DNA from: Cyanophora paradoxa CCMP329
Taxonomy: Eukaryota; Plantae; Glaucophyta
Assembly: GCA_004431415.1 (NCBI GenBank)
Contig: QPMI01000513.1
Location: 1 to 64,000, forward strand
Direction of reading: 5' to 3'
Length of the DNA stretch: 64,000 bases
Shown here: in pieces, positions 29,416 to 54,475 of the stretch
How the letters are laid out: every line of letters begins with the position of its first letter
How positions within the stretch are numbered: position 1 is the stretch's first letter
Translations under genes and position numbers: made by a program
The notes under the pieces: model-generated
Database searches by the model: none
What the model saw: only the letters and a program-made list of their open reading frames with translations
What the model was told of the DNA's origin: nothing

Positions 29416-29471
29416 GATCCAGAGAAAGTCTGGACCCAGACTCTGAGAGTAACGCTTCCAAAGCACCAAGC
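29416..29471 (+). repeat. Inverted-repeat arm R (first part; continues at 54426-54475 after the PLV)
   Basis: GATCCAGAGAAAGTCTGGACCCAGACTCTGAGAGTAACGCTTCCAAAGCACCAAGC is the imperfect reverse complement of 29061-29117. Confidence 0.85.
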
Positions 29472-30338
29472 GCTCGCTTGGGGGTAGCCCCCACCAATTG
29501 CGCGACCTTCCCGCGACCATTTTCAATAAGCACATTTTCAGCATCACGAATCTCAGTCACAAAATCACAAATTCGCACTGAGCCACATTGTATTTTTCAA
29601 ACATCTAACCCTTCCTTACTGAAACCAATCACGAAACCCTTTCATTCTTCATTTTTCTAATTCCTTACCATTCCCAGTAAGCCCTTTAACTTTCCCCGAT
29701 CTCTCAGTAAGGACAGTAAGACCCTCATTTTTACGAAATGTTCCCGATCGTTTCCGGACTGTTTTCAGTTACCCAAATTGAAAAATCAAGGTGAGCCCAC
29801 CAATTAAACAAGTGATCCCCACTTAAAGCAGTTAATATACTGTAACAATGGCAAGCAATCAAGTAAATTTACCTGAGAGTAAGCGGTGCAATGTTTGCGA
29901 TAAGGTAAAACCGGCATCGAGTTATGCATTGCAAAAGCGTAGCTCAGGGAATGTACTTTTGAATTGGAGATGCAAAGACTGCGACCGAGAGTATCACAAT
30001 TACCTTTATCATTGTGTGTTAAAAACGCGTCCGAAGATCGAAGTACAATCGAAGATATGCTCGCACTGCAAGATTGAGAAGCTTGCAAGTGAGTTTAATA
30101 AAAGACAAAGAACGAAGGATGGTCTCAACTACCAATGCCGAGAGTGTTATAGCAAAACACGTAAGAGTTAAACCGAATTTCATTTTATATTTTTTAAAGC
30201 AAGTTTGTGCATGAGCAAGCATGCCGAAAATGCCCACCTGCACAAACTTGCGAGATCAAGGTAAGCCCCACCGACAAAGTACGACGATAGACCACGTTAA
30301 AATAAACTCGCGCCCCGCCCACTATGCAAGATACATGC
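29472..30338 (+). repeat. Left terminal inverted repeat (867 bp)
   Basis: Reverse complement of 53557-54425; the only differences noticed are two C-run length changes. Confidence 0.97.
29848..30171 (+). CDS. TIR-encoded protein with two CxxC...CxxC zinc-binding repeats
   Basis: KRCNVC...CKDC and KICSHC...KDGLNYQCREC; identical copy at 53724-54047. Confidence 0.7.
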   Translation: MASNQVNLPESKRCNVCDKVKPASSYALQKRSSGNVLLNWRCKDCDREYHNYLYHCVLKTRPKIEVQSKICSHCKIEKLASEFNKRQRTKDGLNYQCRECYSKTRKS

Positions 30339-30388
30339 AAACAACATGCGAGATACATATATAAATTGTTTTTCTCTTCCTATAATAA

Positions 30389-31198
30389 ATGAAGACTCAC
30401 TTTTACCATAAATATACCGGCAACAAGTATAATGAAATGAATACGATCTATCCATATATCGATTTAGAAGGAATTAATAAAGTTATAGAACCGTTTTGTG
30501 GTTCAGGTGCTTGTAGTTTCTATCTTTGGGAAAAGCATAAAGACCGGTTTGATTATTATATGAATGATAACGACGAAACCCATACCCTTTTTTTGAATAC
30601 AATGAAAGACCCAGACAATAAAGTTAAACTCTTAGAGAGTCTTAAACAGTTCGAAGCAGTTAGCAATATAGAAGAGCACAAAGAAGTCTATAAGAAGTTT
30701 CTACAACATGATCGTAAAGATGCAATGGATTACTTAGCTCACCATTTCTATCTTCTTAAAAACAGCATTTTAAATGTTAAAACCCTCCGTGATTTCAAAA
30801 AACGAAACGTAAAGGTGAGTCCATATACAACTCTTAAAAATAAGATACCTTACGATGATTTCATAAAAGAAGTCAACCTATCCCATGGGGATTTTCGCGA
30901 TATCTTAGCGAAATATAGAGATGACGAAGCGGCTTTTATATTTCTCGATCCTCCATACGTAAACAGCAATAATGACTTTTACGAAAATGTAGAATTCGAT
31001 TTAGAAACCTTCTTTTTGGATTTGGAAGACCTATTTAAGACAGCGAAATGCAAGGTTATGATGGTTGTAAATGATGCTCTTTTAATGAAACTACTATTTA
31101 AACCCTATATTCGCCATACGTATGGCAAAGTGTATGGTATGACAAAAAAGAAAAGAAACCATCTCATTATGACTAACTATGAACTTGGTGAAAAATAG
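30389..31198 (+). CDS. DNA N6-adenine methyltransferase, Dam/D12 class
   Basis: Motif I IEPFCGSGA and motif IV FIFLDPPY. Confidence 0.92.
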   Translation: MKTHFYHKYTGNKYNEMNTIYPYIDLEGINKVIEPFCGSGACSFYLWEKHKDRFDYYMNDNDETHTLFLNTMKDPDNKVKLLESLKQFEAVSNIEEHKEVYKKFLQHDRKDAMDYLAHHFYLLKNSILNVKTLRDFKKRNVKVSPYTTLKNKIPYDDFIKEVNLSHGDFRDILAKYRDDEAAFIFLDPPYVNSNNDFYENVEFDLETFFLDLEDLFKTAKCKVMMVVNDALLMKLLFKPYIRHTYGKVYGMTKKKRNHLIMTNYELGEK

Positions 31199-31229
31199 AG
31201 TAATTAAAATATTTGTTAAATAATTAATA

Positions 31230-31622
31230 ATGGATTCCCGATACCGCGGCTACCACGTTATGCTCGACTATATAACCGACCCGTTTACTGAGTCCCCGGA
31301 GGCATGCGCCGAGTGGATCACAGCGAACCTATCGCAATATATCACAGATCGCAATATGCGCATCGTGCACCAGCACACATGCATTTTCGATGGCTCTATT
31401 TCCCCTCCCGGTTTCGCGATTGGCTTTCTATTAGATGAGTCGCATGCCACAGCTCACTCTTATAGCGACCAGGGGCTATTAGCGATCGATATCTTTACAT
31501 GCGGCTCAAATGCCGAAGCGAAGACAATGGGTATAGCACAGGACATTAACGATCTCATACAGGAAAGGCTGAAAGTGCGAAAGTGGGACTTACAGGTCGA
31601 GCAAAGGTTCCCAATTTCATAA
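31230..31622 (+). CDS. speD: S-adenosylmethionine decarboxylase proenzyme (prokaryotic class 1B type)
   Basis: LLDESHATAHSY self-cleavage ES site and AIDIFTCG. Confidence 0.9.
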   Translation: MDSRYRGYHVMLDYITDPFTESPEACAEWITANLSQYITDRNMRIVHQHTCIFDGSISPPGFAIGFLLDESHATAHSYSDQGLLAIDIFTCGSNAEAKTMGIAQDINDLIQERLKVRKWDLQVEQRFPIS

Positions 31623-31647
31623 AAAATGAAAAAAACGACAGATATAT

Positions 31648-31962
31648 TTAATGCTCCTTGATCGGAAACTTGCCCATTAGCGGGTGATCGAGACCCATGA
31701 CATACCAGGATTTCATAACGGGATCCCAGCGGGCTTTCTCAGCCTTCGCTTGATCCTTAAATTCATAAGGAATATCGAGGTAAACCTTCAAGTTTCTTTG
31801 ATACACTTGCTCATAGCTTAGAGTCTTGAACTGAGAGCATAGAGAGTGATCTTTCTTCGTGACATACCAGCATGAATTCTCACGATCCCACTTTCCACCG
31901 AGGGATTTCGCAACGTCTTTTTTATCAAACGGAATATCCACGAAATGCTTTTCACCCTCCAT
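31648..31962 (-). CDS. Tandem DUF5710-like domain protein
   Basis: Two copies of DIP(F/Y)..KD.AK....WD.....WYV. Confidence 0.75.
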   Translation of the reverse strand: MEGEKHFVDIPFDKKDVAKSLGGKWDRENSCWYVTKKDHSLCSQFKTLSYEQVYQRNLKVYLDIPYEFKDQAKAEKARWDPVMKSWYVMGLDHPLMGKFPIKEH

Positions 31963-32001
31963 CTCTTTTATATTTACCGGAGAAAATAATTTCGGGGTTT
32001 G

Positions 32002-33381
32002 TTATGAACGAGAAGACCGAAGAATGCGCGTAGTAGGGGCTGTGTAGCTTGCGCTCTGATTCTTGAATGATTTATACCACCGCTGACTGTTTACCTCTGA
32101 GAGCTTCTCAGTGCCGGCAATCGTTAATTTCGCGAGCTCTCTAAGCGCCCTCTTAGTCTTCTCCGCGCGATCTTCCAATAATGCGCCTTTCGGAACACTT
32201 GCGGCGACATCTATGCCTTCTTTTTGAACCTGCCGGATAGAAGCGGCTTCCATTTCGGCTGCTTTGATTGCGTTGCCTGATGGTTCCACCACAGCTTCGA
32301 CCTCTGTAATGATCTGCAATTCGTGCGGCTTAAAAAGCTTCGGCATTACGTTCCCCGCTGCATCTTGCACCTCTATCGCGTTTCCTCTCCTTCCCGCAAT
32401 TTTGTAGACCTCTCTGCTATACCTTTGTGTTGCTCCTTTATCAAACTTTGATCTCGGCAATAATACACGGACGTGGAGACCCGGCTTAAAGTCGCTGAAT
32501 ATATCCTTTACGATTGTGTTCTTCTTTGAAATAATAGCCGCTCGGATCCGCTCCATATCAGAAAGCTTAACATCTGCGGGTTTCATTCCTATGGTTCTGT
32601 GAATGGTGTTATTATAATTGAAAACGAAGTCGTCCAATTTGTCCATGAATCGAACTGTATTATAAGCGACACAGTAATTGTTTATCATCGTTTTTAAGGT
32701 CAAATGAAAGCGATTCATTATTCCAGAGAAGTGTGATCTCCGACCTGTTTAAAGCGGTGTTCTATTCCATTATTTTTAACGACCTCCTGAAACTCCTTCG
32801 CGATGAATTCCGAACCGTTATCTGTCTCCAATCGAATCATCGGAGCCGGGAGCTCTGTGAGCATCTCCGCAAAAGCGGCGGCAACACTTGCGCCCTCCTT
32901 ATTCTTTAACTTCTTGGCATATGCTTTTCGGCTTGTCATCTCGATGAGAGTAAGGACTGCAATGTAGCCGGAATTATAATTGCCATATGAGAGATAAAAG
33001 ATGAGATCCGCTTGATAGCACCACGGCGGGGCTGTGATGGGAATAAAAGCTGTTTGGGTCGGTGCTGGGGCTTCTTGTTGATCTGCATAAATTCTTGTTT
33101 CGCTGCGACATCTTGCACTTCTTTCAATGTGAGGCTCTTGTCCTCTTTTCTCAGCTCTTCGTACAATGCCGATGGGTTCTTAAAACCTGTCTTTGGGTCA
33201 TACATGCGGCGCACGATCTTAGAGGACGGGTTAGCAATGCTAAAAGGAACATCTCCTAATAAATTTGATTTTGCTTGGCGTTTTGTGATTTTTTGGGGAC
33301 TTGCTCAGTTTCAGGAACCGCGATAGGTAGTATGGTGGTCTCTGTCTCCTCGCCCGCTACCCTTCTAACGATCCGTGACAT
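32002..33381 (-). CDS. Retroviral-like (rve) integrase, three single-base frameshifts
   Basis: YDPKTGF N-domain; YQADL (D1), ETDNGSEF (D2), HTSL(G)IMNRFHLTLK, YNNTIHRTIGMKP and FDKG...YSREVY. Shifts at about 33290, 33040 and 32722 fall in short base runs. Confidence 0.88.
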
Positions 33382-33399
33382 TCTTCTAATTAAACCTGT

Positions 33400-36300
33400 T
33401 TATTTTTTGCTGCAATTGCACCCGTGATGCACGAGCTGGCAATTGTCTTTAAGATGTGGGCGCCTGTTGTTTATGCGATCCACGACGAGCTTGTAATTCG
33501 GATCTTGTGGCTCAGTCGGAATAGGAAGGGAACAGAGCGCACAGGCGCCCTTCTGTTGCTTCTTGCGCTCTAATATCCACTCCGGCGTAATATAATCCGC
33601 CTCATCGAAATCGCGCCCGGCACGCTGATCCTGGCATTTGTAACCGCGGATCTTCCCTTTCAGATACTCGATGTAGTCACTCTTTCCTTGGAACTTGTGA
33701 ATCGGTGTATAAATCAGCACAGTAGACAGATCGCGGTTACGAGTGAGCGCGGTATAGAACCATTCGCGAGTGGTATAGCGGAACGTAGCCTCACAAATGA
33801 CAATGCCCGAATCAAGTGTGAGACCTTGCGTTGAATGACCTGTTCCTGCATAAGGGAGAGAAAAATGTTCTAACATCGCGCACGGAACCTCAAACGTGAC
33901 ACCATCGAAAACGTCCGTTAATGTGACCATTTGCTTTGTGATTTTGGTGATTCGATAGGTGTAATTCGTGTATGCGTTTATAGACTCGCCCTCAGACCGC
34001 GAAATGCGTAGATACTTGCGGCAAACGACTTCCAAACCCTTGTAGAATTTGATGCCATTGACCTCTACGGTTGGGATATTTACTTTGCGTCTATCGTGCA
34101 TCAGTTTGTTGTAGGCTAAGGTCATTTCGTTTCTGTAAGCGATGCCAAAGTAGCCGTCGGGAATAGCGCTTAGATCATTAATTGTCGGCAACCCGTATTT
34201 CGAGATAATCTGTGCGGCTTCCAGTCCGTTCTCGAAGAGATCCTCTTTAATCGCCCGAATTAATTCACGGTCTGTCTCCTTCTTGTGCCGCTTGTTATTG
34301 CGTAGACTCAGAACGTTAGGGAACATACTCTGCACCGCGCGCTTATAGTAGCCCTTGCGATCAGAAACCGAGAGCTCGTCATTAATTGGTTCATTTTGAT
34401 AGGTGTCGCCATTAGCCAAATATTTGATATCCGGATAGCGATCGATAAACGACTTGATCTTAGCGAGATCTTTTACGGAATACGCGAATATCTCGTCGAA
34501 CATAATGTGACTGAACTCGGAGACGAACGCCCTCTGGTCTTTTTCGCTCATAGCCTCTTCGTAGGTCTGATCATTTGAGACACGGATCCCGAGAACATTA
34601 TATAAAGTACGAACGGTAATATTCTCGATTCCGCGGACTTTGAGAGAGTCCCTCAGCTCCGCGCACTGTTTGTTATAGGGGCAAATAACTAAGCAATTCG
34701 ACTTTTGAGATGCGAAACAGTTAATACCGAGTGTCGACTTTCCACTTCCGGGCATGTCAGCAAGGACAAGCATACGATTATGGAGCTTCGCAACCCAATT
34801 AAAGCACTCCGGATTAAATTCGTCCCTCAGCGAGAACCGGTTAATGAGTGTCTCGGGATCCTGAAATTCGAGAGTTACACCCCGCGGTGGGCGGAGTGCA
34901 TTCTCAGGGCATCTTTTCCCGGGAATATAGCTGAATTTGCCCATGTTCTCAAACGCATTTCGGTCGAACTCTTTCTTACTTGTCCATGAACCTTCGATAT
35001 ATAGGCAATCCGTTCTGATTCCGGCAACCTTGTGCCCGCGCGCTGTCAGGCGCTTGTATTGCGCAAACATATTAGCACGGTTGCGATCGTAAATATGAAA
35101 GTGGATAGGAAGGAATCCGTTAACGAGCTCGCGGTGGGAGCTGATCTTAACGAAATAGATGTGACCTTCGAATTCGCTAAGAGTTTTGACACGTTTCGAA
35201 TTCTTAGGATTGAAAGTAAACACCTCTACTGTTCCTCCGCATTCTTGGGCGAACCTCTCAGCCTCGGCACGGTTGTAGAACATTTTCGTGGATGTTTGCG
35301 AGTCTTGGAATTTGCCGAGCATTCCGATCTCTTTCACTAAAATGTGCTTCTTATCTGTGGTTTGAATGTCACTTGAAAGTACTTTCTTCATCTCCGAGAT
35401 CGACGTATTGGGCACCAAATGCGAAGGCTCCGCGACCGCGATAATCTCTATCTTGTCCTTTACGTCCGCCCAGTGCATGGAGAGAGTGTAGCCTGTCATG
35501 AAATTATAACAGCGACCACTCACGGAAAATGCGCGATCCAGAATAATTTCGATTCCATCAATCTTGCGAGACATGGCGGCATCATAATCTACATCCTCAT
35601 CGTCGGCGAAAGTCGCTTGCTCTCTCTCAAACGCAACGACACGCACGTAGTAGATCGCGTATTCGAGAATATCGCTTCCCGCTTTAAAGGGAACGAAGTC
35701 ATCAAACACATTGTATTTCGGAAGATATTGCATGCCTTTCAGTATCGAAGGGTAGCACTTCGCCATATCGACAGCTGTGTAGGTGGCTTTCGGGTTCGGC
35801 TTATAGAAAAAGCCACTTAGTGCGGATCGCTTGTAGTGCGTGAGAATTTCGCGCATGTTCGGGCTGTAATGTGAGATATTCGTCGCATTTAGAAGCGACT
35901 CCCGGAATCCCTTCCCGATTTCACAGACCTTATTATAATACTCCTCTGTTTCGAAATCTTGCTCAATAAAGTGGTCTGTTGTGCGTGGATCTTTGATAGA
36001 GAACATCGAGCCATTGGCTTTGAATGTGATGCTGTCGATCTGTTTCGATGGTGTTAGCTTCACAGCGGGCTCATATCGCATTTTCAGGAACGTAAATAGA
36101 AGACCTTCCAGACCTTCGCGCCCAGTATAAAGAATGCGGATGAAACTGCGCTCGTCGGGCGATAGTTTAAGTTGCGTGATCTTTAACAAATCCTTGGATG
36201 TGTGCGCGAAGATATCGTGAGTAAGACACGTCGGAATTTTATAGAGTGCTAACGAAGAGGTCGACTTAGGAACATGATTATCGAGCTCTTCGACCTCCAT

Positions 36301-37716
36301 CTTCGCCATGCGCATTTCGAGCGACTTGATGTTATCGTTGAATATATAGATGTGCTTGTTGTGAATCATAAAGTGAATATTGCGGGGAAAGATGTTTTTG
36401 TTAATTGATTCCGCCGCGAATTTGTGTATTAACTTTCCGTCGACATCAAAGACGCGGAAGCCTGTCTGAATTCTCTTACAGAATTTCTCGATATGGCGGA
36501 GGGTGAGAGCCAGAGAGTCGCCAGGTGTGCGTTCGCGACCGTGAAAGAATTTATAGAGACCGTCGTAGGACATAGTTAAGTCAGTATATCGCGGTTTTGG
36601 CGCGTCCTGACACTTCTTAATGGACGCTCCCCATGTGGAGATGATCATATCGTATCCGCAAGCGTTAGATGTAGATGATTTGGGAAGCTCAATAACATCT
36701 TCGAACTCAGACGCGTTTGGATTTAATGTGTAGTCTGTGAATTTGCTCATAATCGCGGTGCATCGCATGCTGTCCGTAAGCTCCTCATCCAGAAACGCAT
36801 AGCGATTGCCAGGGATAGCACCGGCTCCGTCATCTTCGACACCTTCGTCCCCATCGATCACGACCTCATGAACAGTTATAAAGGCATCATCGATACTGCC
36901 GCCAAGATCACCAAATATTAGGCTTAGTCTTTTCTGTTCCTCGGTTGGTGGTGTCTTATAGAAGAACATCTCGTATGCTTGTCCGAATGTTTCGAGATAT
37001 ATAGCCAATTCATCGTAGTTTTTGAGTAAATAGAAGATTGATTCGCTCTCATGCCAATCATGACGAACTTGACCCGGTCTAATTATAATTTGAGACATTC
37101 TATCCATTTTCGCCAGAGCAAAGCTTCGCAACACACTCACCGAAACTGTCTCTCTTATCTTGCGGTAGGTGACAAAGGTTCTGTCTGGCATATTTAATTC
37201 GGGAATTCCGGGAATAACAAATACCTCCGACGACCGAGCACCGGATCCAGGTCCCCATAGATTGAACGTAATTGTTGCGAGAGTTTCCGGATCGTATGCG
37301 GCGATTGGATCGAGAATAGTGCGTTTAATCGCATCCTCTACCGCTTTTAGTTTACCTCTCTGCTGCTTCGCTTCGAGTTTCGCTTCTTTCGCCCGTTTCT
37401 GTTCTTGCTTGCGATCGAAACGCTGTAAACGCTTAGCCTCTTGTTCTTTTTGCTTTTGCTTTTCTATATTAACTTGGGTGCGAGCGGCGCGCTTCTCTTT
37501 CCGCTCTGCCCTGCGGAAAACGCGGGGATTAATGATTCCATTCAGAGTGTCCCGAATGTCGATCAGCGTTTGGAGCTTGGGCTTCCGATTCATTGTGTTG
37601 TGCATCGCCCAATGCGCCTGTTCTTCGGTTAGCAAATCCTGACTCAATCCCTGCATAATGTATCCGATAATTTCGTCCCGAACATTGTTAGCGATTCTGT
37701 TGGTTGCGCGCGGCAT
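33400..37716 (-). CDS. Protein-primed family B DNA polymerase fused to SF1 (Pif1/RecD-like) helicase and C-terminal HNH
   Basis: PolB: AVDMAKCYPS, KHILVKEIGMLGK, IRTDCLY. Helicase: MPGSGKST, FDEIF, GDTYQ, HSTQGLT, YTALTR. HNH: CALC...DRINNRRPHLKDNCQLVHHGCN. Confidence 0.88.
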   Translation of the reverse strand: MPRATNRIANNVRDEIIGYIMQGLSQDLLTEEQAHWAMHNTMNRKPKLQTLIDIRDTLNGIINPRVFRRAERKEKRAARTQVNIEKQKQKEQEAKRLQRFDRKQEQKRAKEAKLEAKQQRGKLKAVEDAIKRTILDPIAAYDPETLATITFNLWGPGSGARSSEVFVIPGIPELNMPDRTFVTYRKIRETVSVSVLRSFALAKMDRMSQIIIRPGQVRHDWHESESIFYLLKNYDELAIYLETFGQAYEMFFYKTPPTEEQKRLSLIFGDLGGSIDDAFITVHEVVIDGDEGVEDDGAGAIPGNRYAFLDEELTDSMRCTAIMSKFTDYTLNPNASEFEDVIELPKSSTSNACGYDMIISTWGASIKKCQDAPKPRYTDLTMSYDGLYKFFHGRERTPGDSLALTLRHIEKFCKRIQTGFRVFDVDGKLIHKFAAESINKNIFPRNIHFMIHNKHIYIFNDNIKSLEMRMAKMEVEELDNHVPKSTSSLALYKIPTCLTHDIFAHTSKDLLKITQLKLSPDERSFIRILYTGREGLEGLLFTFLKMRYEPAVKLTPSKQIDSITFKANGSMFSIKDPRTTDHFIEQDFETEEYYNKVCEIGKGFRESLLNATNISHYSPNMREILTHYKRSALSGFFYKPNPKATYTAVDMAKCYPSILKGMQYLPKYNVFDDFVPFKAGSDILEYAIYYVRVVAFEREQATFADDEDVDYDAAMSRKIDGIEIILDRAFSVSGRCYNFMTGYTLSMHWADVKDKIEIIAVAEPSHLVPNTSISEMKKVLSSDIQTTDKKHILVKEIGMLGKFQDSQTSTKMFYNRAEAERFAQECGGTVEVFTFNPKNSKRVKTLSEFEGHIYFVKISSHRELVNGFLPIHFHIYDRNRANMFAQYKRLTARGHKVAGIRTDCLYIEGSWTSKKEFDRNAFENMGKFSYIPGKRCPENALRPPRGVTLEFQDPETLINRFSLRDEFNPECFNWVAKLHNRMLVLADMPGSGKSTLGINCFASQKSNCLVICPYNKQCAELRDSLKVRGIENITVRTLYNVLGIRVSNDQTYEEAMSEKDQRAFVSEFSHIMFDEIFAYSVKDLAKIKSFIDRYPDIKYLANGDTYQNEPINDELSVSDRKGYYKRAVQSMFPNVLSLRNNKRHKKETDRELIRAIKEDLFENGLEAAQIISKYGLPTINDLSAIPDGYFGIAYRNEMTLAYNKLMHDRRKVNIPTVEVNGIKFYKGLEVVCRKYLRISRSEGESINAYTNYTYRITKITKQMVTLTDVFDGVTFEVPCAMLEHFSLPYAGTGHSTQGLTLDSGIVICEATFRYTTREWFYTALTRNRDLSTVLIYTPIHKFQGKSDYIEYLKGKIRGYKCQDQRAGRDFDEADYITPEWILERKKQQKGACALCSLPIPTEPQDPNYKLVVDRINNRRPHLKDNCQLVHHGCNCSKK

Positions 37717-39749: not shown

Positions 39750-39751
39750 GA

Positions 39752-40618: not shown

Positions 40619-40676
40619 TCTTTCACTATAAAAACAATAGAAAAATAAGACTGACTGTGGTAATCGCACGAATTCC

Positions 40677-43826: not shown

Positions 43827-43832
43827 GCGCTG

Positions 43833-45326
43833 TCACACGTAGTAGCCCTCGAAATCTATTCGGCATGCCGAAGCTACATTCGTAGTAAGCACCCAGATTA
43901 CGAGGGTTCTCACAGATCTCGGGTTCGCTAAGAAATGTTCGTCGGGTTCTACACTTCCGGCTATTTGATTTGCATTGGTAAACACTCTCGTCGCGCCGGC
44001 TTCTGTGTATGTGACAAGCGCCGAAACTCCCGGAGTTAATTGGTAATCGATTTCAAACGTTTTAATGTAGTTTCCATTTGCAGCCGGCTTCATTTTTATA
44101 GAGGAAAGCATAAACAGACGCGGAAAATCAATGCGTAAATAATTGCCTCCCGACCTACTACCTTGCGGCGGGTTGGTAAATCCCACCCACCCCGTAGCAT
44201 TTGACCAGCGGGCATCAGAAGCTGTGCCAAATTCCGCAATAAAGGCGCTATTATCGAGCGGCACCCAGTTAGACTCCGGGGGTGCGCTTACATCTGTGCA
44301 CCCGGACAGATTAATTATGGGAACATCGCCCTCTGAGATATTCATCGTCAGCACTGAATACATCGCATTAAAATACGTTTGCTGTGCGGAAACAAAGGCG
44401 AGCGCTTCCGTTTCCAAATATTGCAGGTGCGTCGTTGTGGTTGTATCGAGGGTCATTTTATCTTTCGGTAAAGGAACGCTCAGCTTATAGTAGCGATCGT
44501 AATTCTGATCATCGTTTCTGGGTAAAAGTTCCAGTAGCTTTACGTGGGCGTTTAGATCGCTCGACTCTAAGAACATGCTGAGAATTGGCGATCCTGTGGC
44601 GCTTAGCATCCATTGCACGATCCCCCAATTTTTCATGGTGTCATACGAATATCCCGCGGTTGCTTTATCGGCGTCTTGGACGTGACCCGCCGTAATCGAG
44701 ACCACGATAAGCTCCTCCTCGCAAGAGTTTCCGAATAAAGTGCGGGCAAATGTGTAGCCGCAAACCCCGGGCGAATTATTTCCACTCATGCAACCATCGA
44801 TTAAACAATATGTTCTTCCGGCGACTGTGACTTGTTTCGGCTCGAAATAGGTCGGAGCAGCCGAGGTAGCCCTTGCAGCATCGCGCACAAGCATCCCATT
44901 AATATCTTCATCGTTGCTTGAAATAAAAACGGGGGACATTAAGACCGTGTCGAACGCAGTTACTATGGTGGGTTTGTAGAGATCCGCCATGGTCGCTGAG
45001 CCGCAGAGTTCCAGAGCCACAGCTTCTAAGTTAGTTGCTTCGTACTTTGGGCGCTGTACAATCGATGTAAGCACTCGTGGATTCGCGAAAATCAGCGGTA
45101 GTTTCGCTTTGTAGAGCGCGAGAATATCAGTGGCAGTATATTTAGGGGCGCCATCGGTTCCCTTGATATTCAATAGGAGCGCGATTAATCCACCTGTGGA
45201 TGTTCCCGCAAAGCAGTCGAATAGCTGTTGGATTCGTTTACCGGTTTGGGCTTCAATCTGTGCCAGTATAGCAGCCTCGATTATTCCACGCGACCCTCCA
45301 CCACTCAGACATAAAACGGTCTTCAT
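43833..45326 (-). CDS. Patatin-like phospholipase fused to F5/8 type C (discoidin) domain
   Basis: LSGGGSRG, GTSTG, ATSAAPTYF, IDGC; C-terminal YLRIDF...YIKTFEIDY...CRIDFEG. Confidence 0.88.
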   Translation of the reverse strand: MKTVLCLSGGGSRGIIEAAILAQIEAQTGKRIQQLFDCFAGTSTGGLIALLLNIKGTDGAPKYTATDILALYKAKLPLIFANPRVLTSIVQRPKYEATNLEAVALELCGSATMADLYKPTIVTAFDTVLMSPVFISSNDEDINGMLVRDAARATSAAPTYFEPKQVTVAGRTYCLIDGCMSGNNSPGVCGYTFARTLFGNSCEEELIVVSITAGHVQDADKATAGYSYDTMKNWGIVQWMLSATGSPILSMFLESSDLNAHVKLLELLPRNDDQNYDRYYKLSVPLPKDKMTLDTTTTTHLQYLETEALAFVSAQQTYFNAMYSVLTMNISEGDVPIINLSGCTDVSAPPESNWVPLDNSAFIAEFGTASDARWSNATGWVGFTNPPQGSRSGGNYLRIDFPRLFMLSSIKMKPAANGNYIKTFEIDYQLTPGVSALVTYTEAGATRVFTNANQIAGSVEPDEHFLANPRSVRTLVIWVLTTNVASACRIDFEGYYV

Positions 45327-45369
45327 TATCTTATATACTTCTTATATATCTTCTTTGTTTATAAAGAGG

Positions 45370-48300
45370 ATGTCGTTCCTGAATCCGCGACCAGACGCAC
45401 GAGTTATTAATTCGACCACTCAGATAGAGGACACTGATCAGGTAAACACTGAAATTCGCGGGTCTCTGAAAATAAACTTCAATGCAGACCGCGAAGATCC
45501 AGTCAGTGGAACACCGAGCAGACCCGCAGCTTTGCAGTTAATGAACGTCGAGAAAGGGGATCATAAACTTGGAATCGACTTTTTACTTGATGATAACGAA
45601 CGAAACAGAGTCGCCAGCATTCAGGCAACCCGCCAGCTACCGAAAACGGTGCGATATAATCGTAGGAACATCCCGAAAGCATTCGATAGAGGTCGCTTAA
45701 ACTTCTTCATTCAAGATGAGAGCGGTTTCCAAAATGCAGCTATGAGAATCGTGGATAATAGCACACTTATAGCGGGAGTATCCACACGGAAAACAAAGGT
45801 AGAGGTCGTCCATGATCTCTCAGCAGGTAATCTAACGACGAGTAACATTACAGCAAGTAACATCACTACGGATACCCTAAATGTAAACTCGCTTAACTCC
45901 GAGTCGTTTTTCGCCACCAATGTCGCAACCTGTAACCTAAACATCGAATCCTTTGTGATTCAGAAGAGCGAATCGGTTCCCCAGATAACAGAGGGTGTTT
46001 TCACATTAGACCCCGCGAAACCGACCTTAGAAATTGTCGAAAATGGGAACGTTGTGGATATAATTGGCGCCAATGCTCCGAATGTGAGATCCTTAGCACT
46101 TGATAAAACGACTATATCATTTGCAGAGGAGATTCCGGCTTTTACCACAGAGAAACAGGCACTGAGAACAGATCATGTTTACATTACCAGAGACAATATA
46201 AACGATCTTTTAGGCAAGGACATCGTAAAGGCGTTTTTGGAGTTCGAGAGGAGCAAGAACACCAAAGATTCCAGCCAGGATGGAACCCTCACGACCCACA
46301 CTACTGAAATCGCGGCTTTGCAATCCGAAATTAATGCTCTGTTTGCAGCAGATGGAGCGCTTGCAATTACCTTAGCCCATATTCTATCGAAAAGGAACAT
46401 TTACCCCGCGACTGATAACACATACCGGGTTGGTTTATCGAATCTGAGATGGTCAGAGGTGCATGGAGTTTCCATGTTTGCCTCCAATTTAATCCTTCCA
46501 TTTAATCACTCACTCCGACCCAATCAGATTCTCACCAGTGATAATGCACTGATCAGCTACACTGACTTTAATAGTAACCTTTCCCGCTCGGTTTCGCAAA
46601 CTGAGACCTACACTGTCGAGGGATACCCTCAGCAGCTCGCAAATGGGGTCTATGTCGCTTATGTAGGCAAACCTACATATACATTCACTTGGGATCAGTT
46701 GGGTGTCACAGGTTTCGAGACGAATATACCCACTGTTTCATTGGTGGATCACACTACTTATTATAATCCTATCTATAACAATAATGAATCTAATAAAGCA
46801 TTTATCCAAAATGTCACCTCCACAGGGTTTCAGGTTTCGTTTGTCATTAACGAGACATACAATTTACTTATCATCCGAAACAACTCATTGAGTTCCGAAG
46901 CTACTATAAGTTTCACTCTTAACATCAATTATATCACCCCTGAATTCGATAGCGAACCCAGAGTAAAGGTTTACCGAGATTTACAAGGTAGCAATATCGT
47001 GCCCTTCTCACAGAATTTCGATCTTGGTGCGAATTCTTTAAGGTGGAACACAGTTTATTCTTTGAGTGCAAACACCTGTAATATTGTAGTCGCAGGTTCA
47101 TCGGCTACTATTGGAGATCTGACCGCGCCTTTTAGAAAGGAGTATCTTAAAGAGCTGTATATAACAAAGTCTGATTTACCAGATGCTATTTCGTTGGTAC
47201 TCTCCCCCACTCCCAGCATATCCTACCACAATGTGAAAGACACAAGTAATGTAGTGCAGAGTGGAAGCAAAGTATTCCAGGCATCCGAGATATCAGCAAC
47301 AACATATAGATATCTTGCAGGGGTTCCAGCGAATTTTAATTTTACATTTGAGACACCATTTGTCTCTCCTCCTACTATTGAAATAACTGACACGAATTTG
47401 TATGTGGTCAATGATGGGTCAGCTACATCACTTCAAAATGCACCAGCCGGCTACTCCCCGTTTGTTGCAACTAACATAACAACCACCGGCTTCACACTTG
47501 TCGGAAATGCAACAGTGACATATGCTCTGTCAGGGTATCCTGTTGGGTTGTATTTTTCGAAATTTAATCTCTCTGTTATCCCAGCAGTGTCCCTTGCTCC
47601 TCCCTTTACTATCAGTTGGAAGGCAACAGGAACTATTCCGCGATTTGACCCCGAAGATCGATTAAAAATACGGTATCCTCTCGATGTTACCGACATTCAT
47701 ACTACGAGAATAAATGGGCAGAATTTCGTATTTAATGGAACCAATGCGACTCTGATCGATAATCGAGTTACAAATAATTACTTTTTCGATTCTCGATATA
47801 TTAATACTTGCAACATTGTCATACAGAACACGTTTGAGAATCGCAGTAAGACCTTAACAGTCACCTTGCCCACTCACTCGAATGTCTCAGATGGATTTCA
47901 CTATTACCTGTTCAATCGCAATTACACCTCTTATATTCCATATCCTTCTGAGACTGTGAACATGAGCTATCCCAGAGTCACCTTAACATCGACCAATGCT
48001 GACTTCTTTGGATCCACAGACTTCATGAGAGACTTCTTTTATTTTACATCCTCCACAGATGGTCTCTTAGTTTATTACTCTTACAAATATGAGTCAATTG
48101 CTACCCAAATCGAAAGCCACCCAAACACTGATGTGATCACAGCAGGCGATAAGAAATATATAAAAACCGCTTCCCCATGGGTGTGCACTGTCCGGCTTGA
48201 TGACAGATACACTCCTAACCTAAATAACATTGGATTGCACTCGACATGCAATATTTATGTGCAAGGTGCGATTTCGGCTACCAAATATTTTGAGGGTGGA

Positions 48301-48942
48301 AATTGTGATACAGGACATAGGTTGCTATCGCGAAATGGACTCTTTGAGTCATTCAGTGGGACGGCTCTACCGCCCTTTATCAGGGACACAGTCTATGATA
48401 CCACATGCAATATTTGGGTGTGTCGATCTGTGAGCAATCCACCTGTGACACAGGAATTATACAAGTATCTCGCAGATACCTATGGTGCAATCTCAGGATC
48501 CTCCACAGGAAATCCAGCGACGGCTCCCATCGTGTTTGCGAATGCATACACAGCGCCAACATCATTAGCAGGGTCGACAGAGCCGCCACCAAATGATCCA
48601 AATCCGAACCAGCCTAACCCAGATCCCGATTCACAAGATCCCCCTACAACTAATCCAGATCCAAACACACCACCTAATAATCCCACGAATCCTACAAATC
48701 CAGTCGGGGCACCGGGAACAGATCCAGGAACGTTAGTGCTTATGATTCTCTTGCCGATTCTCGGTGCTCTTGGGCTTGTGCTTGCATACAAATTCCGAGC
48801 TTTGTGTTGTGCATGCATAGACAGAACCATTGCAGGAGCAGGTAATAAATACTCCACACCAGAGCTTAATGTGACCCAAACAGCCGAAGGAGATGTGGGC
48901 TTAGAGGTGAGATCAGCCGAGGGCATGGTCTTAGTGTTGTGA
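45370..48942 (+). CDS. Large fibre-like structural protein with Pro/Asn linker and C-terminal TM helix
   Basis: Start MSFLNPRP. Repeated P....(Y/F).(V/L)G...LRW..V modules, T.TGF lectin-like units, PNPNQPNPDP linker and LVLMILLPILGALGLVLAY. May extend to 49093 through a frameshift. Confidence 0.7.
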   Translation: MSFLNPRPDARVINSTTQIEDTDQVNTEIRGSLKINFNADREDPVSGTPSRPAALQLMNVEKGDHKLGIDFLLDDNERNRVASIQATRQLPKTVRYNRRNIPKAFDRGRLNFFIQDESGFQNAAMRIVDNSTLIAGVSTRKTKVEVVHDLSAGNLTTSNITASNITTDTLNVNSLNSESFFATNVATCNLNIESFVIQKSESVPQITEGVFTLDPAKPTLEIVENGNVVDIIGANAPNVRSLALDKTTISFAEEIPAFTTEKQALRTDHVYITRDNINDLLGKDIVKAFLEFERSKNTKDSSQDGTLTTHTTEIAALQSEINALFAADGALAITLAHILSKRNIYPATDNTYRVGLSNLRWSEVHGVSMFASNLILPFNHSLRPNQILTSDNALISYTDFNSNLSRSVSQTETYTVEGYPQQLANGVYVAYVGKPTYTFTWDQLGVTGFETNIPTVSLVDHTTYYNPIYNNNESNKAFIQNVTSTGFQVSFVINETYNLLIIRNNSLSSEATISFTLNINYITPEFDSEPRVKVYRDLQGSNIVPFSQNFDLGANSLRWNTVYSLSANTCNIVVAGSSATIGDLTAPFRKEYLKELYITKSDLPDAISLVLSPTPSISYHNVKDTSNVVQSGSKVFQASEISATTYRYLAGVPANFNFTFETPFVSPPTIEITDTNLYVVNDGSATSLQNAPAGYSPFVATNITTTGFTLVGNATVTYALSGYPVGLYFSKFNLSVIPAVSLAPPFTISWKATGTIPRFDPEDRLKIRYPLDVTDIHTTRINGQNFVFNGTNATLIDNRVTNNYFFDSRYINTCNIVIQNTFENRSKTLTVTLPTHSNVSDGFHYYLFNRNYTSYIPYPSETVNMSYPRVTLTSTNADFFGSTDFMRDFFYFTSSTDGLLVYYSYKYESIATQIESHPNTDVITAGDKKYIKTASPWVCTVRLDDRYTPNLNNIGLHSTCNIYVQGAISATKYFEGGNCDTGHRLLSRNGLFESFSGTALPPFIRDTVYDTTCNIWVCRSVSNPPVTQELYKYLADTYGAISGSSTGNPATAPIVFANAYTAPTSLAGSTEPPPNDPNPNQPNPDPDSQDPPTTNPDPNTPPNNPTNPTNPVGAPGTDPGTLVLMILLPILGALGLVLAYKFRALCCACIDRTIAGAGNKYSTPELNVTQTAEGDVGLEVRSAEGMVLVL

Positions 48943-49130
48943 GGACTGACCGACCACCAGCAAATAGGGCAGCACCCAAAAAATCACGAGCACAAGAATT
49001 GGCAGAGCAAACGATGAACAATGATAGAGACTTTATGGCGGAAATGGCACAGCGAGAAGGGAGAATATATGAACATGTTCCAAACGTTATGTAACAACCT
49101 TAATTTTGTAGTATTCCATAATAGAGTATA

Positions 49131-52100
49131 ATGACTGAACCCATAGTAGAAACGACAATAAAGAATGCGGTATTGGATAATAATTTTATATAACCCATGC
49201 CAATATACCCAGTGAATCCAATGACCTGATAGTAGATCTAAAAGGGTATGTGATGGGAGCTATGGCTTCCAACCTGTGGAATGACATTTTTGGTTACGAG
49301 TTTGGTCACATATATGACATAGCAAATGGGATTGGCTATGTGGATGCAATGGCGGGAACAGTCTTTCGAAATCTAAATTGCAACTGTGTGGGTGGGTGGA
49401 TGTTTCAGATCTGTTCAAACGTCGATCCTACTATTGATCCAGCTACTGTGACCTTTGATTGCAATCTATTCGCCCCTAAAACCATTTTCTCCATCACTTG
49501 CAATCTCGTTAATTCGGATGTGCCCATAATAGCACCTGTAATAGGTGCATCAAATATGTATATCCAAAGAAACCCGGTCGTGCATACAGGTGCCGAATTT
49601 ATATTGGGCGACAACACCCCAATTAGTCGAATCGAACTACCCAATTCTCACAAGCATTTGTGGGAACATATCACCAATGCCCCATTAACCTATCCACCCA
49701 GTTCTCACGAGCATTTGTGGGAGCATATCACCAATCGACCATTAACCTTCCCACCTGATCCACACACTCATGATTACTTGTCTCTCAAAGGTGGTGTTAT
49801 TTCATCTAATCTTACAATTGCATCAAACCTTACAGTTACAAGTAATATTTATAGCAGTAACATTTATGCAAGTAACATTTACAGCAGTAACCTATGGGCA
49901 AGTAATATTAATGGAAGTAATGTAATAGTCGATTATCTCACTGTGAAGATTGAAGCAAACCTACCAAATCACCCGACATCGAATGTTGTTTTAGATTGGT
50001 TAGCAAAGCAAAAACACACAAAAGCAGATATTACAGATTTCGCCCATAAGCATTTATGGGAAGATATCACAAATCCCCCATCGACCTTCCCACCGGGAAA
50101 ACACACTCATGATTATTCAGAGATTACCAATAGTAACCACAGGCACCCATGGGAGGAAATAGATGAGCAGCCAGTTTTTGCGCAATTGAATGCAATCGGA
50201 AATGTTTTTAATGGGGTCACACTTTACCAATCGATTAATACACCTGAAAGGCTATTTTTGAATGATCATTATGTTAGTCTGAATGGGTCGTTTACAGGTG
50301 AAACAGGCACACCGATGGTGGGAACTCTTGCTGTAAGATTACCCAGGGATCCAATCGTAAACGGAGTGTATAGTGGCGATTTCAATGTAGGAGTAAATGA
50401 TACTTTCCCCAGTATCTATGTTACGAATTATCACCCAGGAGAAATAGGACAAGAAGCGGATTTTTCAGCAGCAATTCAAGTAAATGTAACGGATCAAAGC
50501 GCATATGATGGAGCAAGACCTAAGATTGTGTTCACAAGGGAGAAAGTTGTAAACTATCTTCCTGTTGTGGGACAACCCACAGATGATCACGGAAAATGCG
50601 AGATTGCATGGATTAAAACAACAACAGGTGGCGCCTTAGAAGTCAATCAGAGAATGGCGGCGAAAAACTTACACAATACAACCCTTTCAGGTGTGGTAAC
50701 AGATGATTACCTCCAAAGCAAAAACTATGTAGATGATACAGAACTTGCAGCAATTCTTGAAGATTATGTTACAGATACCGAATTAACGTCGGCTCTTGGG
50801 AATTATCTACCTCTTACAGGTGGGACTCTTACAGGTGATGTGCACGCCCCGAATTTCTTTGTCGACACTCCACATGATCAAACATTTCCTGTTGTCCACC
50901 TTGGTGCTGAATATGTATTAGATCCAAACACTCCAATAAGTCGACTCGAATTACCCAATGTTCACAAGCATTTTTGGGAGCATATTGTTAATCCCCCATC
51001 GACCTATCCACCTGATTCACACGATCATGATTATTTACCACTAACAGGTGGAACTGTGGCAGGTGATGTGCATGCTTCTAATTTCTTTGTTACTACTCCG
51101 AATGATCAAACATTTCCTGTTGTCCACCTTGGTGCTGAATATGTATTAGATCCAAACACCCCAATCAGCCGCCTCGAATTACCCACGAATTTCACCTTTA
51201 ATCTCGTGGATGAGTTCCCTAACAGTCAAAGTCTCATGTATTTCACCTCTGAAAATCGCCTTTCGGGTGCATTCTCACCAATTGAGCTGTCTATACCAAA
51301 GCAAAAGGTGAGCTACAAGGAGCTTACAGATGTGCCGACGGGATTCAGTGGGAAGTGGAGTGATATCATTCAGAAGCCGACTTGGAGTAGTGTAGCATAC
51401 ACAGGAAATTACTATGATCTTGTAAATCCTCCCGATTTCACAAGCTATATACCTCGTTGGATTGATCAAGGTGTAATTATATCAGAATCTACACTTCCTT
51501 TCAATGGGACATGGGATAGGTTATTTACTAAGCCGAATTTGCATGCTGTTGCCACAAGTGGAAATTATGATGATCTGATAAACACTCCAAACCTACATGC
51601 TGTGGCTACAAGTGGAAATTATGATGATCTGATAAACACACCAAACCTACATGCTGTGGCTACAAGTGGAAATTATGATGATCTGATAAACACACCAAAC
51701 CTACATGCTGTGGCTACAAGTGGAAATTATGATGATCTGATAAACACACCTACTTCGCCACCTACTCACAATCACAGCATCGAGTTGCTCACGAATTTCG
51801 GTAGCTATGTAAATGCAAATGCATATGTGCAACAGGGGACAGCGGATGTAGTTATACCTAATCAAGTTTATACAGTAGGGCAAGTGTTTACAGCATCAGG
51901 AACCGTTACGTTTTCTACCCCATATTATAGTGATCCAATAGTTAATGCTACTCTCGAAAACAGTATTATTTTAACGAGTGTCGATTTCACCAATAGCATA
52001 TATATCTCCGCTGAATTTGTGAGTGGGAACCGTGTTGGTTTCAAAAATAAATTCACCTGGATTGCTATATTTACTTGTTATTCGGCGATCAATTATACGA

Positions 52101-52180
52101 ATGTGCCACAAAACGAAAGAACGCTTAAACTCCATTGGATTGCTGTCGGACCTCTCCAAAACAATAATATTCTCACGTAA
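49131..52180 (+). CDS. Large fibre protein with His-rich repeats (frameshift near 49185)
   Basis: ATG at 49131 joins the 49250 ORF through a T-run. Contains HKHLWEHITN.P.T.PP repeats, YLPLTGGT, VATSGNYDDL repeats and C-terminal LHWIAVG. Confidence 0.78.
51533..51750 (+). repeat. Four tandem 54-bp units (PNLHAVATSGNYDDLINT)
   Basis: Units start at 51533, 51587, 51641 and 51695. Confidence 0.92.
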
Positions 52181-52200
52181 TAATAAAGAACAATCAAAAG

Positions 52201-53163
52201 ATGTCGACTGTGTTCACGCCTGTGTTTTCCTTATCAGCCAGTGCTGTCCATAACGTGCAACACACTGTATATGATCTAAACGAGTCATTCCCTTCGACTG
52301 AGACAGCGAAAACCGATTCTTTTAATGAAAACACGATACTCAGAGTCAAAGAACTCAGAGCCGACAAGGCCGGTGGAATCGTTAAAGCTACTGAACTGAT
52401 CGTATCGAATCGACCCGCAATATCTTCGGGGCTGGTCACCAAAGATAATCTATATGAAGGTCAAGCGGATTATAAAACAGCTTTCGATCCGGCTGATAGG
52501 AAATCAGCGGCTTTTCAAGTTTACAGTGGCGGGGCATGGATCGGGACTGGACTGAGTGTGAATGGGAATGCGACGATTACTGGAAGCCTTACGGCTGGAT
52601 CATTTGGGACAGTTAAAACGACCACTATTGATTCTGGGGCGAACTCTGATTTGTTGATTAAACGAAATGGAGTTGCAATGGCGACAGTAACTTCAACAGG
52701 TTTGACAGTCAATAGTGGAACAAATATGGGTTATCTTTCTCTTCCAAATCATCCAAGTTTCATGGTTTATGGAGTTGCCTATTCAACAGGTAGCACAGCA
52801 ACTACCTCATATGTCAACTATCCTACTGTGGCTTTTAATATTGGAAACAATTTCAGTGTAGCTTCTGGTGCAACCCCCGCAAGGTTTACAGCTCCTGTAA
52901 GCGGAATCTATCTATTTAAGTTTTCAGTTTATCCATCAACACCTGCTGGAACGTGGGCTATGTTCTTTCGTGTAAATGGAAGCACAAACTATTACAATCA
53001 GTCCATTCAGAATCAAGGCACCCTTGCTCATATGGAAGCGGTGCTTATGATAAAACTGAATGCAACAGATTACGTATCACCATTCCTAGGACATACAACA
53101 GGTGTTACGCAATTGACATATGATTTTAACTGTTTCCAAGGTGTTCTTCTTCATGCTACCTAA
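52201..53163 (+). CDS. Fibre protein with C-terminal C1q/TNF-like head
   Basis: PSFMVY...FNIGNNFS...RFTAPVSGIYLF...LNATDYV...FQGVLL. N-terminus homologous to 23740-24942. Confidence 0.82.
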   Translation: MSTVFTPVFSLSASAVHNVQHTVYDLNESFPSTETAKTDSFNENTILRVKELRADKAGGIVKATELIVSNRPAISSGLVTKDNLYEGQADYKTAFDPADRKSAAFQVYSGGAWIGTGLSVNGNATITGSLTAGSFGTVKTTTIDSGANSDLLIKRNGVAMATVTSTGLTVNSGTNMGYLSLPNHPSFMVYGVAYSTGSTATTSYVNYPTVAFNIGNNFSVASGATPARFTAPVSGIYLFKFSVYPSTPAGTWAMFFRVNGSTNYYNQSIQNQGTLAHMEAVLMIKLNATDYVSPFLGHTTGVTQLTYDFNCFQGVLLHAT

Positions 53164-53197
53164 AAATTTAATCTCCTGTTCATTTAAAAGCCAAACA

Positions 53198-53461
53198 ATG
53201 TCAACTACACTCTCGGTTGCAATTTCAAATGCTGAATTACTTGGACTCGAATACTGTGCTTACTCTGTTCAGGAATGGTTAGATAATGCTGTTCATAATA
53301 GGGCGAGAATCGCGATTGATGAGATTGTGGACAAAGAAGTTAAATCGTGTATTTCCGCTGGAATTCCGATTCCACTCACAAAGGAAGCGATTGTAGAGCA
53401 AGCATTTAATCGGGGGACTGTTCGAAAGGCAAGCGAAATTCCTGTGAGCGCTCCTATGTAA
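53198..53461 (+). CDS. Small phage-like fibre-associated protein
   Basis: LEYCA..VQEWLDNAVHNRARIAIDEIV resembles small proteins I recall next to C1q-fibre genes in aquatic phages (recall, not searched). Confidence 0.6.
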   Translation: MSTTLSVAISNAELLGLEYCAYSVQEWLDNAVHNRARIAIDEIVDKEVKSCISAGIPIPLTKEAIVEQAFNRGTVRKASEIPVSAPM

Positions 53462-53556
53462 AGAATTCGAATTCGAAGAATGAGAGAGGCGCAGCCAAGG
53501 CAGCTTGTCTGACGACTGGGTTTATTGTTATTTTTCATAGATCATGCATAAGAAAG

Positions 53557-54425
53557 GCATGTATCTTGCATAGTGGGCGGGGCGCGAGTTTATTTTAACG
53601 TGGTCTATCGTCGTACTTTGTCGGTGGGGCTTACCTTGATCTCGCAAGTTTGTGCAGGTGGGCATTTTCGGCATGCTTGCTCATGCACAAACTTGCTTTA
53701 AAAAATATAAAATGAAATTCGGTTTAACTCTTACGTGTTTTGCTATAACACTCTCGGCATTGGTAGTTGAGACCATCCTTCGTTCTTTGTCTTTTATTAA
53801 ACTCACTTGCAAGCTTCTCAATCTTGCAGTGCGAGCATATCTTCGATTGTACTTCGATCTTCGGACGCGTTTTTAACACACAATGATAAAGGTAATTGTG
53901 ATACTCTCGGTCGCAGTCTTTGCATCTCCAATTCAAAAGTACATTCCCTGAGCTACGCTTTTGCAATGCATAACTCGATGCCGGTTTTACCTTATCGCAA
54001 ACATTGCACCGCTTACTCTCAGGTAAATTTACTTGATTGCTTGCCATTGTTACAGTATATTAACTGCTTTAAGTGGGGATCACTTGTTTAATTGGTGGGG
54101 CTCACCTTGATTTTTCAATTTGGGTAACTGAAAACAGTCCGGAAACGATCGGGAACATTTCGTAAAAATGAGGGTCTTACTGTCCTTACTGAGAGATCGG
54201 GGGAAAGTTAAAGGGCTTACTGGGAATGGTAAGGAATTAGAAAAATGAAGAATGAAAGGGTTTCGTGATTGGTTTCAGTAAGGAAGGGTTAGATGTTTGA
54301 AAAATACAATGTGGCTCAGTGCGAATTTGTGATTTTGTGACTGAGATTCGTGATGCTGAAAATGTGCTTATTGAAAATGGTCGCGGGAAGGTCGCGCAAT
54401 TGGTGGGGGCTACCCCCAAGCGAGC
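53557..54425 (-). repeat. Right terminal inverted repeat (869 bp)
   Basis: Reverse complement of 29472-30338. Confidence 0.97.
53724..54047 (-). CDS. TIR-encoded zinc-binding protein (copy 2)
   Basis: Identical to 29848-30171. Confidence 0.7.
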   Translation of the reverse strand: MASNQVNLPESKRCNVCDKVKPASSYALQKRSSGNVLLNWRCKDCDREYHNYLYHCVLKTRPKIEVQSKICSHCKIEKLASEFNKRQRTKDGLNYQCRECYSKTRKS

Positions 54426-54475
54426 CCAAGCCCCAAGCCCCAAGCACCAAGCCCCAAGGTCCGAGCACCAAGGTC
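54426..54475 (+). repeat. Remainder of IR arm R: (MCCAAGC)n...CCAAGGTCCGAGCACCAAGGTC
   Basis: Reverse complement of 29024-29070. Confidence 0.85.

Follow-up and report, generated by a model that had tools for sequence, protein, structure and literature searches.

A Polinton-like virus (PLV) lies inside an endogenous mriyavirus-like element in the genome of the glaucophyte alga Cyanophora paradoxa CCMP329. Both elements were analysed in a stretch of 64,000 nucleotides, referred to here as the window (positions 1 to 64,000 of contig QPMI01000513.1, assembly GCA_004431415.1). The inner element proper spans 29472-54425 (24,954 bp) and is flanked on both sides by CCAAGC. We think it probable that the PLV's own integrase placed it, with no targeting involved, in a non-coding inverted repeat belonging to one endogenous copy of the outer virus, and that it was kept since this DNA is dispensable. 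Neither virus family is new to print. What is new is their pairing within a known nesting phenomenon, probably an accidental one, together with the predicted promoter motif WTTTCT upstream of both viruses' genes and the fibre modules common to them.

Structure of the nested locus

The PLV is bounded by terminal inverted repeats (TIRs) of 867 bp on the left (29472-30338), which contains a cysteine-rich open reading frame (ORF) of 107 aa at 29848-30171, and 869 bp on the right (53557-54425). Their alignment has 869 columns and 99.77% identity, the sole differences being two single-C homopolymer gaps in C runs. Short-read contigs of all four runs carry the extra C at both gap sites. The GC content is 44% within the inner element versus 61.5% in the left flank and 56% in the right flank; along the window, values of 57-70% give way to 36-51% from about 29.5 to 54.4 kb.

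Sequence inspection places the two copies of CCAAGC at 29466-29471 and 54426-54431 (both + strand). To the right of the element, CCAAG units start at 54426, 54433, 54440, 54447 and 54454, and the 7-bp period is regained only when one CCAAGC is deleted. This period test favours a genuine 6-bp target-site duplication (TSD), and we rejected CCAAGC as a mere unit of the tandem repeat. The element length, the TIRs of about 868 bp and the CCAAGC duplication described in a first-pass annotation of this DNA are thus borne out. According to the literature, rve integrases leave duplications of 5-6 bp. The 6-bp duplication and the rve gene of the PLV point to this integrase as the agent of the insertion, as had been proposed.

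The outer element carries an inverted repeat of about 100 bp, and the PLV has landed within one of its arms, splitting it. The intact arm was located by alignment at 29016-29110 and reverse-complemented, and the two halves of the split arm were aligned to it separately. The first half (29422-29471) is identical at 44 of 50 positions, and the second, which consists of the 7-bp repeat tract (54432-54475), at 46 of 48. A third copy of the tract aligns at 56585-56651, close to the outer virus's right end. The right flank (54432 to about 56930) is assigned to the outer virus on the split arm, this third tract and an upstream motif, rather than on protein homology: its three ORFs (54534-55585, 55983-56534 and 56793-56930) have no family match, and none of the three was present in the protein collection in which we looked them up. 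The motif precedes two of the three starts, with a score reached by 15 of 1000 shuffles. The earlier view that both GC-rich flanks belong to one outer virus holds on these grounds.

The split arm is part of a hairpin predicted to be strong (its left part alone has z -7.0) that could serve the outer virus as a rolling-circle origin; no Rfam match was found. With this hairpin broken and a summed length of at least 57 kb, this outer copy is probably crippled. The suggestion that such disabling acts as host defence is implausible, since a single copy is affected among dozens.

Many homopolymer errors in the window might favour an assembly chimera of two repeat families. Short reads bear on this at the left junction, which our junction check covered. 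Fourteen DNA runs contain more than half of the words of positions 25000-34900, and the left junction was recovered exactly in three of four short-read runs, with runs from three studies: as a 59-letter contig at 29442-29500 in runs X1 and X5 and as a contig at 29330-29500 in X2, all with 0 differences. These contigs extend 29 letters into the TIR, below the 31-letter bridging rule, as is expected at the start of a repeat, and the fourth run, X6, is without the junction. However, a mis-join would not produce a 6-bp duplication that restores the 7-bp period, nor a split arm, and with the exact junction found across studies a chimera is highly improbable. The runs may share the strain of the window; thus the test addresses chimerism and not spread within the species.

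Copy number and insertion preference

Genes of the outer virus occur on at least 48 contigs and its major capsid protein (MCP) on at least 26; on at least 13, the MCP lies 7-8 genes from the genes for the late transcription factor VLTF3 or the HUH-like endonuclease. Taking the junction as single copy, we estimate roughly 25-35 copies of the outer family and roughly 8-14 of the inner PLV subfamily.

The exact split of the inverted repeat, and the presence of CCAAGC in the PLV end itself (last 16 bases CTACCCCCAAGCGAGC), could indicate that the PLV targets the CCAAGC tract, a candidate outer-virus origin, in a site-specific way and as a form of host defence. If every PLV copy sat in a CCAAGC site, about 50% of the TIR depth would be expected at the junction, whereas we find 6.5% in X1 and 7.7% in X5. 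The depth at 29459-29464 is fully accounted for by the exact-flank and junction contigs (X1, X2), and that at 29456-29464 is exactly rebuilt from the listed contigs (X1, X2, X6), so that no other mapped contig there joins the tract to the PLV end. Commoner variants of the arm reach a depth of 2183 in X1, with no join to that end.

Among 24 of 32 rows listed, loose ends at the PLV terminus, some of them TIR variants, continue into unrelated GC-rich DNA on one contig each in X1 and X5 (with the same letters), two in X2 and four in X6. With 3 mismatches allowed, the alternative flank of X1 and X5 finds 0 matches anywhere in the window. The same runs also contain several sister PLV families with variant terminal repeats (29472-29570; 3-5 differences per 60 letters).

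Empty-site copies of the outer virus, which the first-pass annotation had proposed to look for, appear to exist. The exact-flank contig stops at 29471 with a depth 2.6-2.7 times that of the junction (645 versus 238 in X1, 554 versus 210 in X5), which points indirectly to sibling outer copies with the same flank and no PLV; about 62% of the same-flank depth continues elsewhere than into the PLV. Two other CCAAGC tracts in the window are without insertion. These observations, together with the outer MCP on at least 26 contigs, make targeting as host defence a very remote prospect, and strict targeting of the tract was rejected on the TIR depth (about 7% against about 50%) and the unrelated flanks. 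The proposed targeting of the outer virus is likewise not borne out, and the flanks and depths are largely what had been foreseen for chance nesting.

Table S4 of PMC10120064 gives 366 PLV-type MCP hits (clusters of 272 and 94) in a 99.94-Mb assembly; either of these two clusters may hold the inner MCP. With 25 outer copies, equal to 0.8% of the 99.94 Mb, one or more nestings would arise with a probability of 0.08-0.15 if there are 10-20 PLVs, and of 0.53-0.95 if there are 94-366. Considering the number of contigs with an outer MCP and of published PLV capsid hits, a single chance nesting is unsurprising. Five of the six PLV contigs named in Table S2 of the same paper are outside the set of at least 48 contigs with outer-virus genes; one also carries a divergent outer-type MCP.

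In the account that we favour, the rve integrase would have placed a multi-copy PLV, with no sequence preference, in the inverted repeat of the outer virus. The inserted PLV would persist because this viral DNA is dispensable to the alga and probably methylated; viral genes of C. paradoxa are reported to be enriched for methylation (PMC12344493). The insertion was probably recent, since the TIRs become identical once the homopolymers are corrected and the outer copies with the same flank seem to be empty. It probably disabled this one outer copy.

Predicted promoter motif and fibre modules common to both viruses

A matrix was trained on 29 upstream regions of the outer virus (consensus ATTTTCTGA, mostly 11-32 nt before the ATG). 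Applied to 17 PLV upstream regions, it scores above 1000 of 1000 shuffles. The motif takes the form WTTTCT(S)A, upstream of ATGs in 1-29400 and 29472-54425. Its core, WTTTCT, is found before the starts of 18 of 29 outer genes and of 7 of 17 PLV genes, including the PLV MCP and the polymerase-helicase gene. Among the remaining ATGs the counts are 12 of 609 and 11 of 853, and among AT-matched ones 2 of 101; we picked the start sites ourselves and fixed the pattern after inspecting both sets. When three related PLV promoters are collapsed, the motif is found in 5 of 15, a count reached by 2 of 2000 shuffles. Three PLV copies of the motif (31964, 37727 and 38296) lie within a longer common repeat of 32 nt. 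A second motif, TCACCTG, occurs at 641-1930, 13569-13640, 29138, 29322 and 55625, before outer genes that are partly without WTTTCT, and is possibly an early promoter; there are 0 copies in 56950-64000.

The two viruses also have fibre modules in common. Their long fibres share 25 of 48 residues, and the genes next to them 49 of 145. The outer region 19636-24942 and the PLV region 49253-53163 have a repeated fibre module and the N-terminal part of the following gene in common, and the matching order suggests gene exchange.

WTTTCT is a predicted promoter motif that would be explained by a host core promoter, by a late promoter read by VLTF3 or by a common giant-virus helper. We prefer the first, under which the host polymerase would transcribe the two viruses in the nucleus. 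Under the second, the PLV would be a virophage-like parasite of the mriyavirus-like virus that uses its VLTF3 via WTTTCT, replicates alongside it and occasionally integrates. This PLV family would then be the first virophage-like parasite of a mriyavirus, marked by a late-promoter motif of its helper, the lack of its own VLTF3, swapped fibre modules and integration at an origin hairpin, all in a glaucophyte nucleus. The enrichment of the motif before the starts of both viruses would fit such a parasite, as would the Pfam scan, which found no VLTF3 of the PLV's own. In Cafeteria, a promoter match decides virophage reactivation, and the order of the fibre modules suggests a history of co-infection. 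However, the PLV shows no preferential integration into the outer virus, a host core-promoter element explains WTTTCT equally well, the motif was defined on starts and a pattern of our choosing, and mriyaviruses offer neither an RNA polymerase nor a factory (PMC11253617). On balance, we regard parasitism as unlikely, though it deserves attention.

Less probable still is that both families answer to a third party, either a glaucophyte giant virus or a shared de-silencing state, with the PLV inserting more often into co-activated or repeat-rich viral DNA. A motif common to both viruses would be expected in this case; viral genes of C. paradoxa are clustered as well as methylated (PMC12344493), and giant viruses activate PLVs in other algae. 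No such helper, and no relative, was found in the viral and metagenome contigs scanned, and the flanks recovered give no evidence of an enrichment of insertions in viral DNA.

Several points weigh against untargeted insertion, the account that we favour. Run X6 is without the junction and without the exact flank, although no X6 contig lies over 29459-29464, which makes this a hole and not an absence. The CCAAGC in the PLV end raises the possibility that micro-homology may have helped the insertion, and the motif and fibre modules show that the two families share more than a landing site. Contig depth does not equal copy number. The visible flanks are a small and biased sample, as only contigs that overlap the TIR by more than about 30 letters contribute; some derive from TIR variants, and they were compared with only as much of the outer virus as the window contains. 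Finally, the inner subfamily alone (about 8-14 copies) gives a chance of about 10-15%, which leaves room for a mild enrichment.

The two viruses, their relatives and their biology

The inner element exhibits the traits of a PLV: TIRs with a 5-6-bp TSD, an rve integrase, a double jelly-roll MCP with an A32 ATPase and, by profile, a superfamily 1 (SF1) helicase. Next to the left TIR are genes for a D12-class N6-adenine methyltransferase (30389-31198, +; PF02086, E 2.8e-16) and an S-adenosylmethionine decarboxylase-like protein (31230-31622, +; PF02675, E 1.4e-11). We speculate that the latter, adjoining a DNA methyltransferase, could deplete the methyl donor of host silencing. A DUF5710 protein follows (31648-31962, -; PF18974, E 4.2e-24).

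The rve integrase (32002-33304, -; PF00665, E 2.3e-14) is spread over three reading frames in the window. At one of the frame breaks, each of the four runs has an additional base (among 12 of 18 indels listed, in contigs that mix copies), and the breaks therefore probably stem from assembly error. Frameshifts as proof of decay were rejected, as the short-read contigs, though mixing copies, differ from the window at several of them. Of the completeness first claimed for the PLV, both TIRs and the TSD stand, while the integrase is intact only if this error is assumed.

A replication fusion of 1438 aa (33400-37716, -) combines pPolB-like motifs identified by eye with an SF1 helicase and an endonuclease VII/HNH nuclease. 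It matches phrog_325 (E 1.9e-13) and phrog_1035 (E 1.8e-9) and no PolB profile, so that the pPolB part is assigned by motif. The A32 packaging ATPase (39752-40702, -; PF04665, E 1.8e-10) is followed by the MCP (40677-41990, -; 437 aa), which scores 0.98 to capsid clusters at a recognition of 1863, lower than is comfortable for the tool. The MCP has 1 relative among 7,992 candidates scored; by eye, genes near-identical to it are listed as confirmed MCPs on two C. paradoxa contigs in Table S2 of PMC10120064. Beside it are two paralogous candidate pentons (42038-42964, -, and 42981-43826, +; E 1.5e-5 to each other) that match no penton profile and whose function is proposed from their position. 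A patatin-like phospholipase (43833-45326, -; PF01734, E 4.1e-22) and fibre-like genes (45370-53163, +; 1190 aa, 975 aa and 320 aa, the last with C1q) complete the element; two of the fibre-like genes have modules in common with outer-virus fibres. A capsid-maturation cysteine protease, a trait of Group 1 Maverick-Polintons or virophages, was found in none of the 18 inner ORFs scanned.

On the outer side, the window contains genes for a DUF5767 protein (2845-3648, -; PF19071, E 2.7e-13; 22-member cluster), an MCP of Nucleocytoviricota type (5232-6602, -; PF16903, E 3.4e-8), a RuvC/A22 resolvase (10325-10801, -; PF04848, E 3.2e-7) and VLTF3 (12653-13483, -; PF04947, E 2.4e-24). The A32-type ATPase (10839-11906, +; Walker A at 11150) has a weak profile match (E 0.14) because it is frameshifted near the P-loop in the window; its match to the PLV ATPase has E 4.3e-5. 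A HUH-like endonuclease (13715-14557, +) is assigned by its motifs LHAHI and YITK, which are kept in five of five aligned copies; it has no Pfam or PDB match. A longer paralogue (14581-16275, +; 26% identity, E 6e-6) carries a C-terminal HUH-like domain (LHAHV). Fibre-like and fibronectin-III genes were identified by profile and comparison at 19636-27073, and an HNH endonuclease at 28619-28984 (-; PF13392, E 2.8e-8).

In the fibronectin-III region 24383-26068, contig depth is 10-20 times below that of the outer virus's core genes, and adjacent blocks are skipped or replaced in the contigs; one reading is that this is a variable receptor-binding cassette among outer copies. A frameshifted ORF at 2010-2791 may correspond to the T7-like single-strand binding protein of gamadviruses, a guess drawn from PMC11253617, as it has no profile match. 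Towards the left edge of the outer virus, where genes are sparse, a direct repeat of 50 bp (88%) occupies 1-52 and 882-930. The outer virus is at least 32 kb long with its left end beyond the window, and from 57050, taken as an approximate border, to 64000 the DNA is host-like with no viral families.

Each virus thus has an MCP and an A32 ATPase of its own, as had been claimed; the pentons claimed alongside them match no profile in either virus. The inner and outer MCPs have no profile similarity and by this comparison represent two unrelated capsid lineages, in agreement with the first-pass annotation. Predicted models of the two capsid proteins have low confidence (pLDDT 35.5 and 32.4). The outer one still matches capsids of nucleocytoplasmic large DNA viruses (62 at E up to 0.001), and a structure search with the inner one gave 0 matches.

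The gene set supports the outer element as mriyavirus-like, and it likely belongs to the Mriyaviricetes, whose genomes are 35-45 kb. This placement is by gene set and not by a tree. A helicase of superfamily 2 or 3 is present in 55 of 60 mriyavirus genomes (PMC11253617). A six-frame search of the part of the outer virus within the window found no helicase P-loop, and, as its left end lies beyond, membership stays at likely. Pfam scans of the same part gave no DNA or RNA polymerase and, using Pfam rather than family-specific profiles, no VLTF2, PDDEXK nuclease or Mriya_48/50/51 match. The closest known counterparts are the 'Gamadviridae' (Pleurochrysis endemic viruses (PEVs), Phaglo-G/NDDV; PMC11253617, 10.1101/2022.07.28.501842), which also combine a Nucleocytoviricota-type MCP, A32 ATPase, VLTF3 and RuvC with short and long HUH-like proteins side by side, high GC, no DNA or RNA polymerase seen, and an endogenous state in an alga. 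In contrast to these, no helicase or VLTF2 was found in the 32 kb present of the outer virus, and its host is a glaucophyte.

Outside the host, relatives of the outer MCP are distant and unnamed (best E 6.5e-12), and no named yaravirus or PEV sequence is among the homologues returned for the outer virus. Every named member of the clusters that contain window proteins bears the label Cyanophora paradoxa, and the same holds for 15 of 15 outer MCP homologues. Relatives of either element were not found in the viral contigs, metagenome contigs or phage records scanned, and the PLV TIR end has 0 matches in metagenome contigs. Five of five PLV proteins looked up are absent from EukProt, in which many copies of the outer-virus genes carry annotations as host genes; GC-trained gene calling likely missed the PLV proteins.

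Mriyaviricetes-related regions have been reported in a Glaucocystophyceae assembly (10.1101/2025.04.19.649669). These regions and the C. paradoxa 'GEVEs' of PMC12344493 are probably the same family as the outer virus; the passages of the two papers available to us mention no nested PLV, and the word 'nested' is absent from both texts, unlike the locus described here, which has one. C. paradoxa PLV capsid clusters were described by Bellas et al. 2023 (PMC10120064) and Bulzu et al. 2025 (PMC12220804), with near-identical MCPs on two contigs. They report a Cyanophora PLV with an H-lectin fibre, and glaucophyte and rhizarian PLVs with discoidin, either by itself or as a fusion with patatin; the passages covered give no account of insertion sites or nesting. 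Tlr1-type PLVs (PMC12721341) resemble the inner element in their rve integrase and in a fusion of an N-terminal polymerase-like part, a C-terminal SF1 helicase and a nuclease. In contrast to their GIY-YIG nuclease, the inner fusion has endonuclease VII/HNH, and its PolB is assigned by motif only.

Viruses nested in viruses are a known phenomenon. The Sputnik-2 provirophage is reportedly found in Lentillevirus. In Halocafeteria seosinensis (10.64898/2026.07.28.741278), where such nesting is common and thus lends weight to a chance origin here, complete elements with TIR and TSD (five PLVs and nine virophages) lie inside endogenous viruses. The outer elements there are PLVs or virophages, whereas here the outer element is a Nucleocytoviricota relative. 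In the EMALE/mavirus system (PMC8547959), rve integration is, as is probable here, not sequence-specific, and promoter sharing with the helper marks dependence. The helpers of provirophages and EMALEs are, however, cytoplasmic giant viruses with their own RNA polymerase, and the inner PLV is without a cysteine protease. PLVs and yaravirus-like elements coexist in Phaeocystis. In a literature search that was thin on subscription papers and covered, among others, 10.64898/2026.06.19.733378, 10.1101/2025.10.09.676808 and PMC13768754, no title or passage available to us describes a PLV inside a mriyavirus-like element or a mriyavirus promoter. The novelty first claimed for the pairing stands to that extent, although both families and virus-in-virus nesting are already in print.

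As a chance nesting, the locus is an example of protist genomes stacking viruses in viruses, and it dates PLV activity to after the spread of the outer family. A shared promoter motif, as predicted here, would let one virus borrow the gene-switching proteins of the other. If the motif is indeed a promoter read by VLTF3, the range of virophage-type parasitism, so far one of giant cytoplasmic viruses, would come to include a nuclear relative of 35-45 kb. It would also provide a testable mriyavirus promoter in a cultured alga, whose genome is likely haploid (PMC6704402), with dozens of near-intact copies of both partners.

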